Positions 3,604 to 9,910 of a DNA stretch of 64,000 nucleotides are shown one piece after another; positions within the stretch are counted from its first letter, which is position 1, and each line of letters begins with the position of its first letter. The translations under genes and the position numbers were made by a program. The stretch lies in the IMG/VR virus record IMGVR_UViG_3300009419_001390; one strand, written 5' to 3'. Source of the DNA: a virus (taxonomy: Duplodnaviria > Heunggongvirae > Uroviricota > Caudoviricetes). A model generated the notes under the pieces. The model ran no database searches. It was not told the DNA's origin and saw nothing but the letters and a program-made list of their open reading frames with translations.

Positions 3604-6600
3604 ATGTTTATACAGCAATTATTTGAAGGTGAAATCAAACGGGTAATAGTAATTTATCCAGGACGTTTTCAGCCTTTCCATCTTGGGCACAAAGAGGTAT
3701 TTGAGACATTGCAGGCCAAATTTGGCATGGACAATGTTTACATAGGCACGTCAAACAAAACTGATGCTGTTAAAAGTCCTTTTAATTTCAGCGACAAGTT
3801 ACAGTTGATGACCGCCGCAGGTGTGAACAATCATCATGTGATCGAAGTAACTAGTCCTTACATGCCCGATGACTATATTCGTACAATTGGTTTTGACCCA
3901 AAACAAACTGTGATGATATTTGCAGTGGGTGAGCCGGACCTCAAGAGACTAGAAGTTGATGCCAATTATACTGCACTCACCCCAACAGGAAGACCCAGCA
4001 AGATACCCGACGGTAAATCAGTAGGCGATCCAAAACCATTCAAAACATTCCGAAGCCTACAAGACAGTACAACTGCTGATCAACATCAGTATGTGCTCAT
4101 TGTCAACGAACGTGAAAAAGCAGTTGAAGTAAACGGCAAGAAAATTAATGCCAGTCACGGAACACAAGTACGTGAGTTGTGGAACCAAGTACGCAATGAC
4201 CCCAAAGCCAGTGCTCAAGTACTGCAACAACTGTATGGCCGTGCCACTCCAGAACTAGCACATCTTTTTAACAAAATACCAGATTCCAATGCCGCACCTG
4301 CACCAGCACCAGCTGCCGCACCCAAGCTCAAAGCAGTTAAACAACCCCAACCAGCCGCTGACTTAAATGAATTTGCACCACCCGGCGGAGATGACGGCAA
4401 CGATGGATTCAGCGACGAAACATTAAAACGTCTAGCCGCACAGTGGTGGCAAGGTGACGAGGATCCTCGCGTAGAAAAAACACTTGCAGCCGCAGGTTGG
4501 GAAATTGGCCAAGACGAAGGCTACGACAACGGTGGTGTGTTTGTTGTGCAAGCAGGCGACATCAATGGCAACAGCTACATCAGCTGGCCAGCAGAAGAAC
4601 TAGAAGGCCTGGGCGAAGGTGCTATCATTACCAAAGACCAGTTAGTTGATATCTATATCAAAGGTAAAGGTAAAAACAACATGCCAATTCAAAAGAAAGT
4701 TGGCGCACAGATTCCAAACAGCAAAGTAAATGCTTTCATTGCCGCTGTTGCAGACAAGTACGGACTCAATCCAAAAGCATTTGTATACGGTCCTTCCAAT
4801 GGCATGTCTGAGGCCACAGGCGACGAGAAATTTGACAAGTCGATGAGACAAATGACTGGAAAAATTACTCCAGCTGATGCTGACGAGATGTTTCCAACAC
4901 AAGAATTTGAGCCCTATGATCTTGATCCATCGCGTGTGCCAAACGAGGAAAAATACAAGGCAAAGTTATTTCCATTGGCTTACCAGTACTGGACTGACGG
5001 TGACAATGCAGATGAATTAAGAAAATTAGGATGGGAGCCTGAATACGGCGATGACTATGTTATGGTAGTGCTGTATGGCATTGGGCACGATGGCCATATT
5101 CAATACGACAAATATGATTTTGATGCTGAAGGCAATGACAGTGTCAATGAAGATGCCGCAGGTGTTGGCGTAGTTGCCAGTAAAAAACAAAAGAACGATC
5201 CTCGATACAGCATGAGCTTGACCAAGGATGTACGTCCAGGAGAAGTTGCAAGGAACATGAAAAAATTACATTTAGAAGGCAACCGTGGATACAACCATGG
5301 CTTTGCAAGTCCAACTGCGCCCAGCCTGGGTCGCCGCGGTAGAGAAGATGATGAATACCATGTGCCAGATCCTGCTCCGTCAACTTGGTACATTCGTGCC
5401 AATGGCAAGATCATCAAAGACAAGATGGGCACACCATTTCAATTCCGCGACAAGGAAGCCGCACATAAGTCTGCAATGACCATGATGGCCAAGCCATTCA
5501 ATGCTGGCAAGAAGTTTGTGTTGACTACCCGACCTGAAGATGAGCAAGGTGTAGCGGAAGCAAAACATTTCCGTACTACCTATGGGTGGGCTGGTGGTCG
5601 AAATGAGAAAACTGGAAAGACCTACAAACACCCAGATCAGATCAAAGCCGACAAAGAAGAAAAAAGAAAAGAAAAAGAATTAGAATTAGAAAAAAATAAA
5701 CAACAGACCGTGGCAGAAGACGCAGGGCCAGTTACACATCGTATTGGCGTTACTGTGATTGATCCCAATCACCCTATGGTCAGCAAGCGCAAAGAAGCTA
5801 TTCAAAAATCAATTCGCATCACGCAAACTTCTCGTATTGATAGAGAAGCAGCCATTAACCAAGCTATTGCACACTATCGCCGCAAAGGTTACAAAGTATT
5901 AGATCACCACTACATGGGCACAGTTGATGCAACAGTAGCAGAAGGTGCAGAACTAAAGCAAGCCAAACGCAAGTACAACCAAGCGGCCAAGGATGCTAAC
6001 TTAGACCAAGTGGGCGCAGGCAAGAAGATTGATACAATGAAGAAAAGTCTGCGTCAAAAGGACCTAGACAATAAAAAAGAAATTGAAGAAGGTGCTACAG
6101 GTGCCAAGCCAGGTTGGATGCTGAGACAAGATCCAGCATTGGCCAAGAAAGTCAAAGACTCCAAGGCAGGCCACCAAGCACTGAAGAAGTGGGCAGGCAA
6201 ACCTGTGCCCAAAGATGACAAGCAAGATGTAGCGGAAGCAACTGGTGATCAGAAATTTGACACCATGATGAATAAAATGACCACTGGTGCAATGGATCGT
6301 GAATTTACTCTAGTTACGGAGCTAGGCAAACTAGGCCAACGAATTGTGCAAAATCCCAAACTTTGGGCTAGATACCAAGAAGAAAATGACAGCGGCGATC
6401 CCGATTGGATCATCAGTTTAATAATGGACGGAACTGGTGCCACTTTTGAAGAAGTGTCACATCTCAGCGACCTGTTCGGCGAAATAGGCGGCGGCATGGG
6501 ACGCATTATTGATTTTGCTTGGTCGGTGAAAGAAGGACACTGGGAAGAAGATTTCCTTAACCCATATAGACAACACAGAAGTCAAGGCGTGGCGGAAAGC

Positions 6601-7356
6601 ATGTTTGATATTGATGATAAAATCAAAGGGCAGATTCAAAATATAACTACTGAGATCAGCGACATTCCTGGTTACTGGGATCATCAGCGTGATACATTTA
6701 CACCGTACGGTGTTGAAGCGTTGGAAAAGGCCCTAGGCAATAATAAAAAATATGTAAAGTATGCTCTTAGTCTAACATCAGATGATTATTATGTAGACGA
6801 AAGTGGTCTTGGACTAGATTACAAGCGCAATCGCTTCAAGTCATTGAACATGCGCGAAAACACAGAAGAGCTGAACATAGGCGATCCTGTCATTATCACA
6901 GGGGATGTGCAATTCAAAGGCAAAACTGGTGACATTGACAGCTTTGGTGACATGAAACGTTTTGTTGTCGTTAACTTGTACAACTATGGTAGGCACAGTT
7001 TTCATTCCAGCGATGTCAGCTCCAATGAATATGTGGATCCAAACGAAATTGACGAAGACATGTATCAGTACAATAAAGAAGATCCATACAACAGCGAGTT
7101 TGCACCACGTGCAGGCATGGGCCGCATGACCTTACGTGGGTGGAAGCAACAAATGATCAAACGCACAGCAGAGCTGGCACAACAAATGTCAGACGCTGGG
7201 CAAGACATTGACAAGGCCGCAATATGGGATCATGTGTACAAAAAGCTCAAGAGCATGAACATGGATCCTATTGCACAAGAAATTGAACAAGCACAAGCAG
7301 AGCTAGAAAAAATTCGTCAGCGTGGCGGTGTGCGTAGCAGGGCATTTAACAAATGA
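3604..7356 (+). CDS. large modular protein: N-terminal HIGH-motif nucleotidyltransferase-like domain plus ~12 short cassettes; probable internal head polyprotein
   Basis: YPGRFQPFHLGH motif; recurring [LVIM]-x-E boundaries (LNE, LGE, MSE, VNE, VAE x5, IEE, IDE); duplicated ATGD(E/Q)KFD..M..MT cassette start. Confidence 0.75.
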   Translation: MFIQQLFEGEIKRVIVIYPGRFQPFHLGHKEVFETLQAKFGMDNVYIGTSNKTDAVKSPFNFSDKLQLMTAAGVNNHHVIEVTSPYMPDDYIRTIGFDPKQTVMIFAVGEPDLKRLEVDANYTALTPTGRPSKIPDGKSVGDPKPFKTFRSLQDSTTADQHQYVLIVNEREKAVEVNGKKINASHGTQVRELWNQVRNDPKASAQVLQQLYGRATPELAHLFNKIPDSNAAPAPAPAAAPKLKAVKQPQPAADLNEFAPPGGDDGNDGFSDETLKRLAAQWWQGDEDPRVEKTLAAAGWEIGQDEGYDNGGVFVVQAGDINGNSYISWPAEELEGLGEGAIITKDQLVDIYIKGKGKNNMPIQKKVGAQIPNSKVNAFIAAVADKYGLNPKAFVYGPSNGMSEATGDEKFDKSMRQMTGKITPADADEMFPTQEFEPYDLDPSRVPNEEKYKAKLFPLAYQYWTDGDNADELRKLGWEPEYGDDYVMVVLYGIGHDGHIQYDKYDFDAEGNDSVNEDAAGVGVVASKKQKNDPRYSMSLTKDVRPGEVARNMKKLHLEGNRGYNHGFASPTAPSLGRRGREDDEYHVPDPAPSTWYIRANGKIIKDKMGTPFQFRDKEAAHKSAMTMMAKPFNAGKKFVLTTRPEDEQGVAEAKHFRTTYGWAGGRNEKTGKTYKHPDQIKADKEEKRKEKELELEKNKQQTVAEDAGPVTHRIGVTVIDPNHPMVSKRKEAIQKSIRITQTSRIDREAAINQAIAHYRRKGYKVLDHHYMGTVDATVAEGAELKQAKRKYNQAAKDANLDQVGAGKKIDTMKKSLRQKDLDNKKEIEEGATGAKPGWMLRQDPALAKKVKDSKAGHQALKKWAGKPVPKDDKQDVAEATGDQKFDTMMNKMTTGAMDREFTLVTELGKLGQRIVQNPKLWARYQEENDSGDPDWIISLIMDGTGATFEEVSHLSDLFGEIGGGMGRIIDFAWSVKEGHWEEDFLNPYRQHRSQGVAESMFDIDDKIKGQIQNITTEISDIPGYWDHQRDTFTPYGVEALEKALGNNKKYVKYALSLTSDDYYVDESGLGLDYKRNRFKSLNMRENTEELNIGDPVIITGDVQFKGKTGDIDSFGDMKRFVVVNLYNYGRHSFHSSDVSSNEYVDPNEIDEDMYQYNKEDPYNSEFAPRAGMGRMTLRGWKQQMIKRTAELAQQMSDAGQDIDKAAIWDHVYKKLKSMNMDPIAQEIEQAQAELEKIRQRGGVRSRAFNK
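5545..6597 (+). repeat. dispersed 15-18 bp repeats encoding Q(G/D)VAE cassette junctions
   Basis: caaggtgtagcggaagca 5545-5562; caagatgtagcggaagca 6223-6240; caaggcgtggcggaa 6583-6597; related aaggtgtagcagaa at 7872-7885. Confidence 0.75.
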
Positions 7357-7679
7357 ACAATCAGGTTCGCATTGATTTTCATGTGTCGTGGAATCTCAGC
7401 AGAGAGAAAATGCTCAAGGATCCTCTTGCCAAAGGTTTGAGGAATTTTGGTCGTTATATCCCTGTTCGCATGTATTTAGAACCTTCAGGCGAAATGTTGT
7501 CTGAACGAATGTTTGACATTAGAGATCCTTACAAGATACATGAAACACATTTTGTAGATCTAGGACTAGGTCGTTGGATTGTGCGTGTTGAAGATTTATC
7601 TGGATGGCTTGATCTTCAAATTGAAAATACCAAATTAAACGGAGTCGATCTGTTTGGCAACGAGTTTACTCTGGGCTAA
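7353..7679 (+). CDS. hypothetical protein
   Basis: 108-aa ORF overlapping the upstream stop by 4 nt. Confidence 0.65.
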   Translation: MNNQVRIDFHVSWNLSREKMLKDPLAKGLRNFGRYIPVRMYLEPSGEMLSERMFDIRDPYKIHETHFVDLGLGRWIVRVEDLSGWLDLQIENTKLNGVDLFGNEFTLG

Positions 7680-7682
7680 ATA
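7676..7682 (+). promoter_or_regulatory. late promoter core (CTAAATA)
   Basis: Overlaps the stop codon, 17 nt upstream of ATG 7700. Confidence 0.5.
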
Positions 7683-7699
7683 CGAAAACGGAACATATT

Positions 7700-8017
7700 A
7701 TGAAGATCAGTGAAATCGTTGCAGAAGCTCGTGCCAACACAGACAGTGCAAGAGCAGGCTTGGCCAAACGCAAAGAAACCAAACCGTTGACGCCCAATGA
7801 GCAAATTGCCAAAGACAAAGCCAAGTCTGACAGGTGGCTAGAAAAAGAACGTGCCAAAATGGCAGCTAAAAAAGGTGTAGCAGAAACCACTGGCTCAAGC
7901 AGTATTGGCAGTGCAATGACTGGTGGCAGTAGTCCCAATGTAGGCACGTTGTTTGGCGGTAGTTACAAACCAAAGACACCGTTTACTGCCAAAAAGAAGA
8001 AAGCTGGTAAAAAATGA
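7700..8017 (+). CDS. small basic protein, probable internal head protein
   Basis: N-terminus MKISEIVAE resembles the T4 capsid-targeting sequence; internal GVAE site. Confidence 0.6.
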   Translation: MKISEIVAEARANTDSARAGLAKRKETKPLTPNEQIAKDKAKSDRWLEKERAKMAAKKGVAETTGSSSIGSAMTGGSSPNVGTLFGGSYKPKTPFTAKKKKAGKK

Positions 8018-8618: not shown

Positions 8619-8882
8619 ATGTTTGTGTATGAATTGTTTAACTCCGATCTTAATCCTGTCAACGAGAACAATGATTCTCGTAATGCAGTACAAAGTGCAA
8701 TCATACGCAGAATTATGACTCAACATAAAGAAGCGTTGGCTGCGCACGGTCCTGTTGTTATCATGCAGGCCGCAGAAGAAGTTGCTGATAATGTTGGCAA
8801 CGTTGACGAAATTGGCAGCAGTGACATAAGTGCATGGACACGCGAAGCATTAGCAATTTGTAAAGAACTAGGACGTACATGA
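8619..8882 (+). CDS. hypothetical protein, possible internal head protein
   Basis: MFVYELF start resembles MFIQQLFE of the 3604 gene. Confidence 0.6.
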   Translation: MFVYELFNSDLNPVNENNDSRNAVQSAIIRRIMTQHKEALAAHGPVVIMQAAEEVADNVGNVDEIGSSDISAWTREALAICKELGRT

Positions 8883-9910
8883 GCGGATCAGAAATTACAT
8901 CTCTTGCATCTACTGATCGCAAGCAGATATTTCCACTACAACAAGGATTCATTAATCCTATTACCGCATACCTATGGGGTGGCGGCGGCGGTGGTGGCGG
9001 CAACGACACAGGCACAGGCGGAAGCGGTGCTGCTGGACAGTTGATCAAAGTCACGTTTAACGCAAACGTTGGTGATATACTTGAGGTAAGTGTTGGCACT
9101 GGTGGTGGTCGCGGCTCAAGTGGAGTTAGAGGAACTGGTGGCGGCACTGCTGGATCTTCTTTTGTTGATGACGCTGGAACTAGATATGGTGGCGGACGCG
9201 GCGGCAACGCAGGTGGATCAGGAACGTCAGGAGGCGGTGGTGGAGGCGGTGGTGCTACTGTGATATCTTTGTTTCGTGTTGCACAAGCTGATAGAGTAGT
9301 TCTTGCAGTAGCAGGTGGTGGTGCAGGCGGTGGTGGTGCAGGTAATCGTGGCTCTCGCAATGGAAAAAATGCCAGTGCAACTGGGTCTGGTGCAAATGCA
9401 TTCCGTACTGGTGGTAACGGACAAGACCATTCTAGTGACGGTGGTGGTGGTGGTGGCGGTGGTGGTGGCTTTTATGGTGGTGCTGGCGGCGCAATCAGTG
9501 GCAGCTACGACGAAGGTGCCAACCCAGGCATAACTGGTAGCAGTTGGGCAAATGCCAGTATCACATTGTCAAATACTGTGTATGCAGGAACTGCTAGTGC
9601 TCCAACCAACATTGATGGATTTGACATTGGCCCTTATGCCAATGGTGGCACGGCCACACAAGCAGGTGGTTCTGGGTTTGCCATTCTTAGATTGATTAAT
9701 GGTCCGCTTCCTTTTATCAAAGTAGGTGGCAGCTGGGCTAAAGTAACCGCTGGATGGGTGAAAGACGGCGGTCAGTGGCGACCAATTACCGGCGCCTATC
9801 ATAAAATCAACAACAAATGGCAAACAATATCAAACGCTGATACTCTTGATTTTACCAACGCAAATGTTGGAATCAACTTTGGCGGTGGCGGAACTAGATC
9901 ATATGCATAA
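8879..9910 (+). CDS. glycine-rich virion/tail-associated protein
   Basis: Multiple GGGGG runs, G.AG....VTF...VGD.LEVSVGTGG pattern, C-terminal KVGGSW.KV..GWVKDGGQW motif. Confidence 0.65.
   Translation: MSGSEITSLASTDRKQIFPLQQGFINPITAYLWGGGGGGGGNDTGTGGSGAAGQLIKVTFNANVGDILEVSVGTGGGRGSSGVRGTGGGTAGSSFVDDAGTRYGGGRGGNAGGSGTSGGGGGGGGATVISLFRVAQADRVVLAVAGGGAGGGGAGNRGSRNGKNASATGSGANAFRTGGNGQDHSSDGGGGGGGGGGFYGGAGGAISGSYDEGANPGITGSSWANASITLSNTVYAGTASAPTNIDGFDIGPYANGGTATQAGGSGFAILRLINGPLPFIKVGGSWAKVTAGWVKDGGQWRPITGAYHKINNKWQTISNADTLDFTNANVGINFGGGGTRSYA

Follow-up and report, generated by a model that had tools for sequence, protein, structure and literature searches.

An 18-nt coding linker with conserved silent positions at the cassette junctions of a phage polyprotein gene

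In phages of the T4 type, conserved motifs mediate modular shuffling (PMC2839356), and recombination works on less than 50 bp of homology (Singer 1982, as cited in PMC2839356). Here we describe an intragenic cassette array in the Caudoviricetes virus record IMGVR_UViG_3300009419_001390, of which a stretch of 64,000 nucleotides (the window) was analysed. The array lies within a single gene for a 1250-residue polyprotein, whose small modules are joined by a repeated linker with the peptide consensus (E/K)(Q/K/E)GVAE↓(G/A/S) (the arrow stands after the P1 Glu) and, as DNA, the consensus (C/G/A)AA GGT GTG GCG GAA GGC over a word of 15-18 nt. The source is a giant T4-like lake phage, and the linker is common to a clade of such phages.

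PeSL (early promoter and stem-loop) cassettes (Arbiol et al. 2010, PMC2839356) share with this array the repeated, conserved DNA elements that flank variable, non-essential modules; neither has an integrase, and general short-homology recombination is invoked for both. As in PeSL, differences between close relatives map to the element here, with exceptions at degenerate sites. However, PeSL consists of an intergenic early promoter and a stem-loop terminator that move whole genes, whereas the word described here is 18 nt long, coding, in frame and devoid of a stem-loop. Excised mini-circles have been demonstrated for PeSL, whereas the present system is known from assembled contigs.

The PeSL authors compare their own system with integrons (PMC2839356), and a sequence-only reading of this window, made before the present analysis, had likewise called the array integron-like. 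We found no integron integrase (the tyrosine recombinase IntI) in the flanking genes of the window (Pfam, PHROGs) or among the gene families at 68 loci (compared by clustering only). An attC-type structure and a promoter-proximal attI are absent, the word having no imperfect inverted repeat and its copies being all direct and in frame. With no integrase, attC-like structure or promoter-proximal capture, the comparison holds as an analogy only. Features of shufflons and invertases are lacking as well: there are no inverted crossover repeats, all copies lying on one strand, and no recombinase was found in the searches of the window and the 68 loci. By its defining features the array is therefore not an integron, a shufflon or a PeSL.

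The internal-protein (IP) loci of T-even phages, as summarised in PMC3012670 and PMC2839356 from Repoila et al. 1994, contain hypervariable IP genes whose products carry a capsid-targeting leader that is removed by the prohead protease gp21. As far as these summaries describe them, such loci resemble the array in a cargo that would be directed to the head by its short leader, which ends (L/I)xE, in an accessory protein set that is highly variable among close relatives, and in a short conserved sequence at the start of the unit that is linked to shuffling. They differ in that the units here are up to a dozen modules within one open reading frame (ORF) rather than separate genes, and in that the element here repeats in frame at every joint, its silent positions frozen across the clade. 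In the T-even tail-fibre adhesins gp38/gp37 (Trojet et al. 2011, PMC3157838, which also cites Tetart et al. 1998 for motif exchange), in-frame conserved motifs likewise part hypervariable intragenic segments, and phages exchange segments through them. The glycine-rich motifs, however, follow one another in a fixed order and together make up the structural core of a single folded domain, whereas the motif here links independent modules that vary in number and order.

At the protein level, polyvalent proteins (Iyer et al. 2017, PMC5512222) are also large, with many unrelated modules and highly variable architectures; they are virion-associated, and are believed to be delivered along with the DNA and to be split by processing into single units (PMC5512222). 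An MPTase-type peptidase of their own is part of them, as are large enzymatic domains of known kind, whereas here Pfam found no embedded peptidase and a single known domain (CTP_transf_like), most modules are small and without known family, and processing is presumed to fall to the head protease at the repeated linker. No linker conserved at DNA level has been described for them (PMC5512222). Head and ejection proteins of giant phages, such as SPN3US gp245 and phiKZ gp175, are cut after A-x-E (PMC10052503, PMC5694885), and so resemble the array in having multiple Glu-ending sites in head proteins, the protease being gp21-related there. Their P3 residue is Ala, whereas here it is Val; their fragments are propeptides of structural proteins rather than shuffled cassettes, and no DNA-level conservation has been reported for them.

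The present array stands apart from these systems in that a coding linker of 18 nt, its silent positions fixed, recurs at all the joints between cassettes of one gene; it is a further form of the modular shuffling already known in phages. We found no paper on the motif, text matches to QGVAE being papers on alpha-synuclein.

The linker word and its silent positions

Four copies of the word had been singled out by the sequence-only reading, and all four are found where it had placed them (Table 1). One amendment is needed: the copy at 7872, which does spell Ala with GCA, belongs not to the gene following the polyprotein gene but to the next but one. The copies at 5545 and 6223 differ at a single one of their 18 positions, as had been said. 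A search with CAAGGYGTRGCGGAA, allowing at most two mismatches, returned four matches in the window, all on the + strand, where 0.17 were expected, and none of 100 shuffles reached four.

An uncounted impression that the junctions use GCG-GAA against the Ala preference of the window proved right when codons were counted over 81 non-overlapping ORFs. GCG makes up 7.5% of the 1381 Ala codons of the window. Within the polyprotein it accounts for 6 of 106 Ala codons, three of these being the Q(G/D)VAE junctions, all three of which use it (3/3 by chance, ~4e-4); elsewhere it is found in 1 of the 86 Ala codons that precede Glu in other window genes, and in none of the 12 other VAE tripeptides of the window. 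The junction word is thus a real observation and not a product of chance.

A search of 5.8 billion proteins identified 130 relatives of the polyprotein, all of them metagenomic and encoded on contigs as long as 374 kb, of which the best 120 were analysed. GVAE occurs 248 times in these 120, where 3.7 occurrences are expected, and its flanks are variable and otherwise unrelated. From this protein-retrieved set we took 24 polyprotein genes with 53 distinct GVAE contexts. The P5 codon ends in AA in all 49 cases of Gln, Lys or Glu (CAA 28/28); Gly is spelled GGT in 46 of the 53 contexts (87%, against 37% in the background), Val is spelled GTG in 41 (77%, against 30%) and Ala is spelled GCG in 38 (72%, against 5.9%; binomial p 4e-35). 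As an independent sample, IMG/VR was scanned with CAAGGNGTNGCNGAAGG, in which CAA and GAA are fixed and the three silent positions are free. Among the 64 possible spellings, GGT-GTG-GCG alone accounted for 58 of 132 distinct contexts, and for 38 of 49 in polyprotein-like ORFs. When 166 distinct junctions from 72 polyprotein genes were pooled, the three codons reached 92%, 82% and 81%, over backgrounds of 37%, 30% and 6%. The same spelling is therefore dominant both in the retrieved loci and in the free-position scan, and codon bias does not explain a GCG share of 72-81% against ~6%.

Information at third codon positions is confined to the word: it amounts to 0.64-1.67 bits within the 18-nt block, and beyond the edges of the block it never exceeds 0.19 bits. 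The tail domain, intended as a control for synonymous drift, was uninformative because its sequences are too closely related, and it was replaced by an analysis stratified by flank divergence. Motif codon identity between junction pairs was 0.63-0.68 whether the synonymous identity of the homologous flanks was 0.28 or 0.71, and it was 0.625 for pairs with unrelated flanks, where codon usage predicts 0.43. The conservation of the junction spelling is independent of flank divergence and does not reflect recent descent. Peptide variants of the linker are one-base neighbours of the word, GMAE being GGC ATG GCG GAA and GVSE being GGT GTG TCG GAA; where Ser stands at P2 it is always TCN and never AGY, though AGY makes up 60% of Ser codons. 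In five whole records of relatives the word was found almost only in the polyprotein locus and on one strand, and a genome-wide signal of the Chi type was rejected on this ground.

A separate observation concerns tandem double junctions, KQDVAE-GVAE↓TMPM, QGMAE-GVAE↓SMPL and EPMAE-GVAE↓TLPM, which are present in three relatives (L025 [P0004 residues 919-930], L061 and L062; L, P and X numbers are our handles for loci, proteins and sequencing runs). In each, a four-residue GVAE unit stands between two sites, before one cassette family. Such a tandem may have been left by recombination as a scar, or the double site may be deliberate.

Breakpoints and the movement of cassettes

The polyprotein opens with an 8-residue leader and a head, continues with small modules in a variable array, and closes with a tail that is conserved (residues 1083-1250). 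The head is cytidylyltransferase/NMNAT-like (residues ~12-228), with a Pfam match to PF01467 at residues 17-110; this CTP_transf_like match is the sole one that Pfam returns on the 1250-residue protein, and no embedded peptidase was found. The best 120 relatives are mosaic: nearly all align to the query in patches only, with head and tail in common and a middle that differs, and many carry other heads (GNAT, HD/RelA, zeta-toxin-like, LysM). We found no relative of the array among the known phages of GenBank. The locus is syntenic in eight relatives (L024, L025 and L059-L064), in which the array gene is always flanked by the same 175-residue and 108-residue genes, and its product ranges from 1105 to 1273 residues. 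These loci share module families, the number and order of which vary as judged from a crude cassette map. Protein-guided scans with the tail domain gave 10 loci from IMG/VR and 13 from metagenome contigs.

A close comparison is offered by L024, which by blastn matches the window at 96-98% identity along 13 kb, interrupted only by two replacements (Table 1). One exchanges cassettes of the polyprotein; its left edge lies 4 codons before ATVAE↓ and its right edge 3 codons after QGVAE↓. The alignment restarts at 6583, and true homology restarts 9 nt past the Glu codon of SQGVAE↓S. The other replacement falls in a small gene downstream. Four sequencing runs (X2-X5) were compared as Logan assembled contigs, with no evidential weight given to uncovered bins in X3-X5. 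A contig of X3 joins 5928 to 6605 with 244 letters between, the same replacement as in L024. The small-gene joint, from 7723 to 7929, is present in X2 and X3, and since X2 also contains the small-gene form of the window, both alleles are present in the X2 assembly. A further, co-occurring contig of X2 parts from the window within the QDVAE word, at 6230.

An initial breakpoint scan with harsh mismatch penalties was noisy, and the figures given here come from refined scans. Segments at least 90% identical, taken over all gene pairs, have 56 boundaries, of which 86% are no more than 15 nt away from a [VILM]xE site, where the null gives 17%; for all 56 the distance is at most 31 nt. A larger set of 81 boundaries was compared with strict junctions, and 64% came within 15 nt of one (null 6%). 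None of these 56-81 recent boundaries leaves a partial cassette. The clearest single case is a 98.9% identical cassette shared by L006 and L049, which has the word exactly at both edges and unrelated flanks. Sites that match the word more closely also have different neighbours more often (rho 0.48), a correlation that is confounded by [VILM]xE sites which are not junctions. When the loci are aligned, then, breakpoints do map to the motif, to within a few codons and with exceptions at degenerate sites. The cassette downstream of EIEE↓GATG follows KGVAE↓ in L059 and L060.

The small gene is built like the polyprotein, and its leader is also capsid-targeting-like. In most relatives it is present as a 54-57-residue form without cassette, and in some it carries other cassettes. 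The cassette that it carries in the window is homologous to polyprotein cassettes in P0026, P0028 and P0013, where it is edged by MSE↓ and GVSE↓. One cassette is thus found both in a small gene and inside the polyproteins of other phages, indicating that modules move between genes. The word, its conservation at nucleotide level, the modular mosaic and the location of homology boundaries at the junctions are established by these comparisons.

We also note that the Gly- and Lys-rich tail of the small gene (7886-8017, ending in NVGTLFGGSYKPKTPFTAKKKKAGKK) also ends some large polyproteins of other phages (P0098, P0088 and P0062), and it may be a shared C-terminal functional tag.

Table 1. Genes, junctions and exchanged segments of the array (positions in the window)
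Feature	Position	Strand	Basis or remark
Cassette polyprotein, 1250 aa	3604..7356	+	ORF list; Pfam; homologue comparison
Leader MFIQQLFE, ends L-F-E	3604..3627	+	Capsid-targeting-like; putative targeting role
Degenerate junction GMSE↓ATGD	4801..4812	+	Homology ends cluster at residues 401-403; left edge of 114-codon cassette absent from L059
Degenerate junction SVNE↓DAAG	5140..5151	+	Right edge of L059 114-codon indel; homology starts cluster at residues 511-516
Junction word CAA GGT GTA GCG GAA GCA (CAAGGTGTAGCGGAAGCA; EQGVAE↓A)	5545..5562	+	BLASTP homology ends cluster at residues 644-653
Junction QQTVAE↓D (GTG GCA GAA)	5704..5718	+	L024/L059 homology boundary
Junction ATVAE↓G (GTA GCA GAA)	5929..5943	+	Left boundary of segment replaced in L024 and run X3; L025-shared segment begins at 5939
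654-nt cassette block	5929..6582	+	L024 has an unrelated 222-nt cassette instead; blastn and codon-level comparison
Degenerate junction EIEE↓GATG	6079..6090	+	Homology ends cluster at residues 826-831
Junction word CAA GAT GTA GCG GAA GCA (CAAGATGTAGCGGAAGCA; KQDVAE↓A)	6223..6240	+	L025-shared segment (92.7% identical) ends at 6238
Junction word CAA GGC GTG GCG GAA AGC (SQGVAE↓S)	6583..6600	+	CAAGGCGTGGCGGAA at 6583-6597
Small protein, 105 aa	7700..8017	+	Leader MKISEIVAE↓, one cassette ending KKGVAE↓, conserved Gly/Lys-rich tail
Small-gene segment differing from L024	7729..7920	+	Left edge inside the VAE of the leader
Junction word AAA GGT GTA GCA GAA (KKGVAE↓T), small gene	7871..7885	+	AAGGTGTAGCAGAA at 7872-7885; Ala = GCA

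The linker as protease site and recombination handle

We propose that the linker serves both as a site for the head protease and as a DNA handle for the in-frame reshuffling of cassettes, a reading whose chances we judge to be evenly balanced. As a peptide, (Q/K/E)-G-V-A-E↓(G/A/S) would be a prohead-protease site of the T4 type, with a hydrophobic P3, Glu at P1 and a small P1', and cleavage at the linkers would free each module of a head-targeted cargo polyprotein. Cleavage is suggested by three lines of evidence. First, both leaders end hydrophobic-x-Glu (MFIQQLFE↓G in the polyprotein, MKISEIVAE↓A in the small gene), as does the capsid-targeting sequence of T4, MKTYQEFIAE (PMC8442874), which has 10 residues where the polyprotein leader has 8; in most homologues (P0001-P0120) the first residues are M-F-(I/V)-x-x-(L/M/I)-F-E or another 8-mer resembling it. 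Second, a gp21-type Peptidase_S77 (PF03420) is present in the records of two relatives (E 3e-24 and 2e-23), and was not found in three incomplete records. Third, T4 gp21 cuts Alt after ITE and LTE (PMC5694885).

As DNA, the same linker would be an in-frame homology patch of 15-18 nt, at which the general short-homology machinery of the phage would join unrelated cassettes. Because such joining takes place at a shared in-frame word, every product would be in frame and would retain the cutting site. Junctions with the majority spelling would have the most recombination partners and would therefore be the source of most new junctions, while junctions that have drifted would freeze. This partner-number effect could hold one clade-wide spelling without a dedicated recombinase.

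The sequence-only reading had already suggested that the motif is a recombination site through which cassettes are gained, lost or swapped, and this idea is supported in part, by the silent-site conservation, by the breakpoints placed at junctions and by the movement of cassettes between genes; the edges that fall off the word and the joints with ~4 nt in common weigh against its simple form. Of the two outcomes that the reading had named as refuting it, breakpoints away from the motif and synonymous identity due to codon bias, neither came about. That crossovers take place within the word is something we infer from the sequence comparisons. Several observations weigh against the proposal. The two recent window/L024 exchanges are bounded 3-4 codons outside the word, and at the left side of the 5929-6582 replacement the partner junctions differ (ATVAE in one, NEPINE in the other). 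About half of the recent boundaries lie at degenerate sites. No crossover inside the word was caught in the material compared, which consists of assembled contigs rather than raw reads. A clean 114-codon indel in L059 joins GMSE↓ to SVNE↓ with ~4 nt shared and flanks ~95% identical, so that precise joints exist without the word, unless old joints have been spread by flanking homology. The word of 18 nt is short even for T4-type recombination, and both the cleavage and the packaging of the polyprotein are putative, being predicted from sequence. GGT-GTG is the commonest Gly-Val codon pair of the window (32%), so part of the signal is ordinary; codon-pair bias accounts for part of the GGT-GTG preference and for none of the GCG preference, and codon-pair context as the cause was rejected, with GCG before Glu as rare as it is elsewhere in the window and the GGT-GTG pair at only 32%.

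Lineage-specific spellings were not found either (p 0.25-0.32), although they would be expected from simple homogenisation within genomes. With no significant excess of such spellings, that process was rejected, and the consensus is clade-wide rather than homogenised genome by genome; the absence also fits some other sequence-specific function. Finally, selection for products joined at junctions must contribute and could in principle explain the breakpoints by itself, but it does not explain the conservation of silent sites.

These points are taken up most fully by an alternative that we consider unlikely, though it survives better than the others. It holds that recombination is untargeted (illegitimate, or via shared neighbour cassettes), that selection retains joints at cleavage sites, and that the silent conservation has a separate nucleic-acid cause, for example a protein-bound RNA or DNA element or a translation effect at module boundaries. 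The precise joints at degenerate junctions and the offset of the window/L024 boundaries from the word agree with it, as does a single universal spelling without lineage variants, which is what a recognised sequence would have; and translation might conceivably slow locally, since no Ala codon is rarer than GCG. However, GCG stands alone among the favoured codons in being rare, for GGT, GTG, CAA and GAA are all common. Pausing of the Shine-Dalgarno type was rejected, because the median synonymous variant pairs better with the anti-Shine-Dalgarno sequence (-8.0 kcal/mol) than the consensus does (-7.2 kcal/mol; rank 705/1024). A G-quadruplex was rejected also, since four GG runs are present at 27 of 54 junctions, and it would leave GGT and the AA-ending P5 codon unexplained. 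A conserved partner in an RNA helix is impossible because the flanks are unrelated; for this reason, and because so G-rich a word forms pairs in any case, an RNA pairing profile was uninformative. Under untargeted recombination, the lack of partial cassettes would call for very strong selection on the accessory modules. Also rejected was a phage tRNA that reads the rare codon, there being no tRNA genes in the window.

Less probable still is a dedicated sequence-specific enzyme (a nuclease, nickase or recombinase) that recognises the 18-nt word and starts the exchange, giving true site-specific shuffling in frame. The universal spelling across the clade, without lineage variants, and the sharp edges of the conserved block are what such an enzyme would leave behind, and there is precedent in the sequence-specific protein that Mosig and Arbiol suggested for T4 GGGC and PeSL events, as PMC2839356 presents it. 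Against this, none of the gene families that accompany the arrays at the 68 loci is recombinase- or nuclease-like (compared by gene clustering, with only some of the neighbours searched in Pfam), none was found by Pfam and PHROGs in the window genes adjoining the array, the word is non-palindromic with all copies direct, and joints are also present at sites without it. The broader notion that the word is a true coding-embedded recombination signal, one that a protein of the phage or the host recognises or that acts by way of a special DNA structure, seems to us similarly improbable.

An ordinary explanation, in which the junctions are recent copies or reflect codon or codon-pair bias and the mosaic is a metagenome assembly artefact across a repeat, is very improbable and already contradicted: GGT-GTG is indeed a preferred pair, and orthologous conserved domains of close relatives keep many codons too, but GCG before Glu is nearly absent elsewhere in the window, motif codon identity is unaffected by flank divergence even with flank synonymous sites near saturation, the free-position scan yields the same spelling, and L024 (from JGI) and runs X2 and X3, which are independent samples and assemblies, repeat the same joints; this, together with a repeat (at most 18 nt) shorter than the usual k-mer sizes of assemblers, makes chimeras unlikely.

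Neighbouring genes and significance of the array

A 108-residue gene without family match (7353-7679) overlaps the stop of the polyprotein gene (ATGA) and follows the array in every syntenic relative; its product could be a partner of the array. Further downstream, a glycine-rich protein of 343 residues (8879-9910) has a weak match to the PHROG virion structural protein phrog_29022 and to Pfam Gly_rich_2, which is consistent with a virion-associated gene neighbourhood. Within the array, the cassettes at 4813-4860 and 6238-6285 share an opening motif of ~15 residues (ATGDEKFDKSMRQMTG, ATGDQKFDTMMNKMTTG) and are otherwise unrelated, their DNA copies having diverged; (A/T/V)TGD.KF opens many cassettes of the relatives. 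A Lys/Glu-rich, low-complexity stretch at 5651-5703 (KADKEEKRKEKELELEKNK) was flagged as a repeat in the contig comparison, and contigs seem to be cut there. Near-identical copies of the window sequence are present both in runs labelled subsurface metagenome (X1, X2, X4 and X5) and in runs labelled lake or freshwater metagenome (X3, X7 and X9), from several studies.

Should the word turn out to be a coding-embedded signal, it would be a standard connector, shared by the whole clade, through which head-delivered polyproteins take up small cargo proteins, and the array would represent a new class of in-frame, site-directed protein-diversity system. If the linker is both the cutting site and the crossover site, module shuffling becomes simple and exon-like, in that any two cassettes join in frame and are still released separately in the capsid. 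Our proposal, if true, would explain the fast renewal of the cargo injected by giant phages, probably counter-defence or host-takeover proteins, and would provide a clear natural case of nucleotide-level constraint in coding sequence serving evolvability. It also points to a ready-made rule by which T4-type vectors could be loaded with modular cargo, and the hundreds of small, linker-delimited modules without known family form a catalogue of candidate injected effectors.

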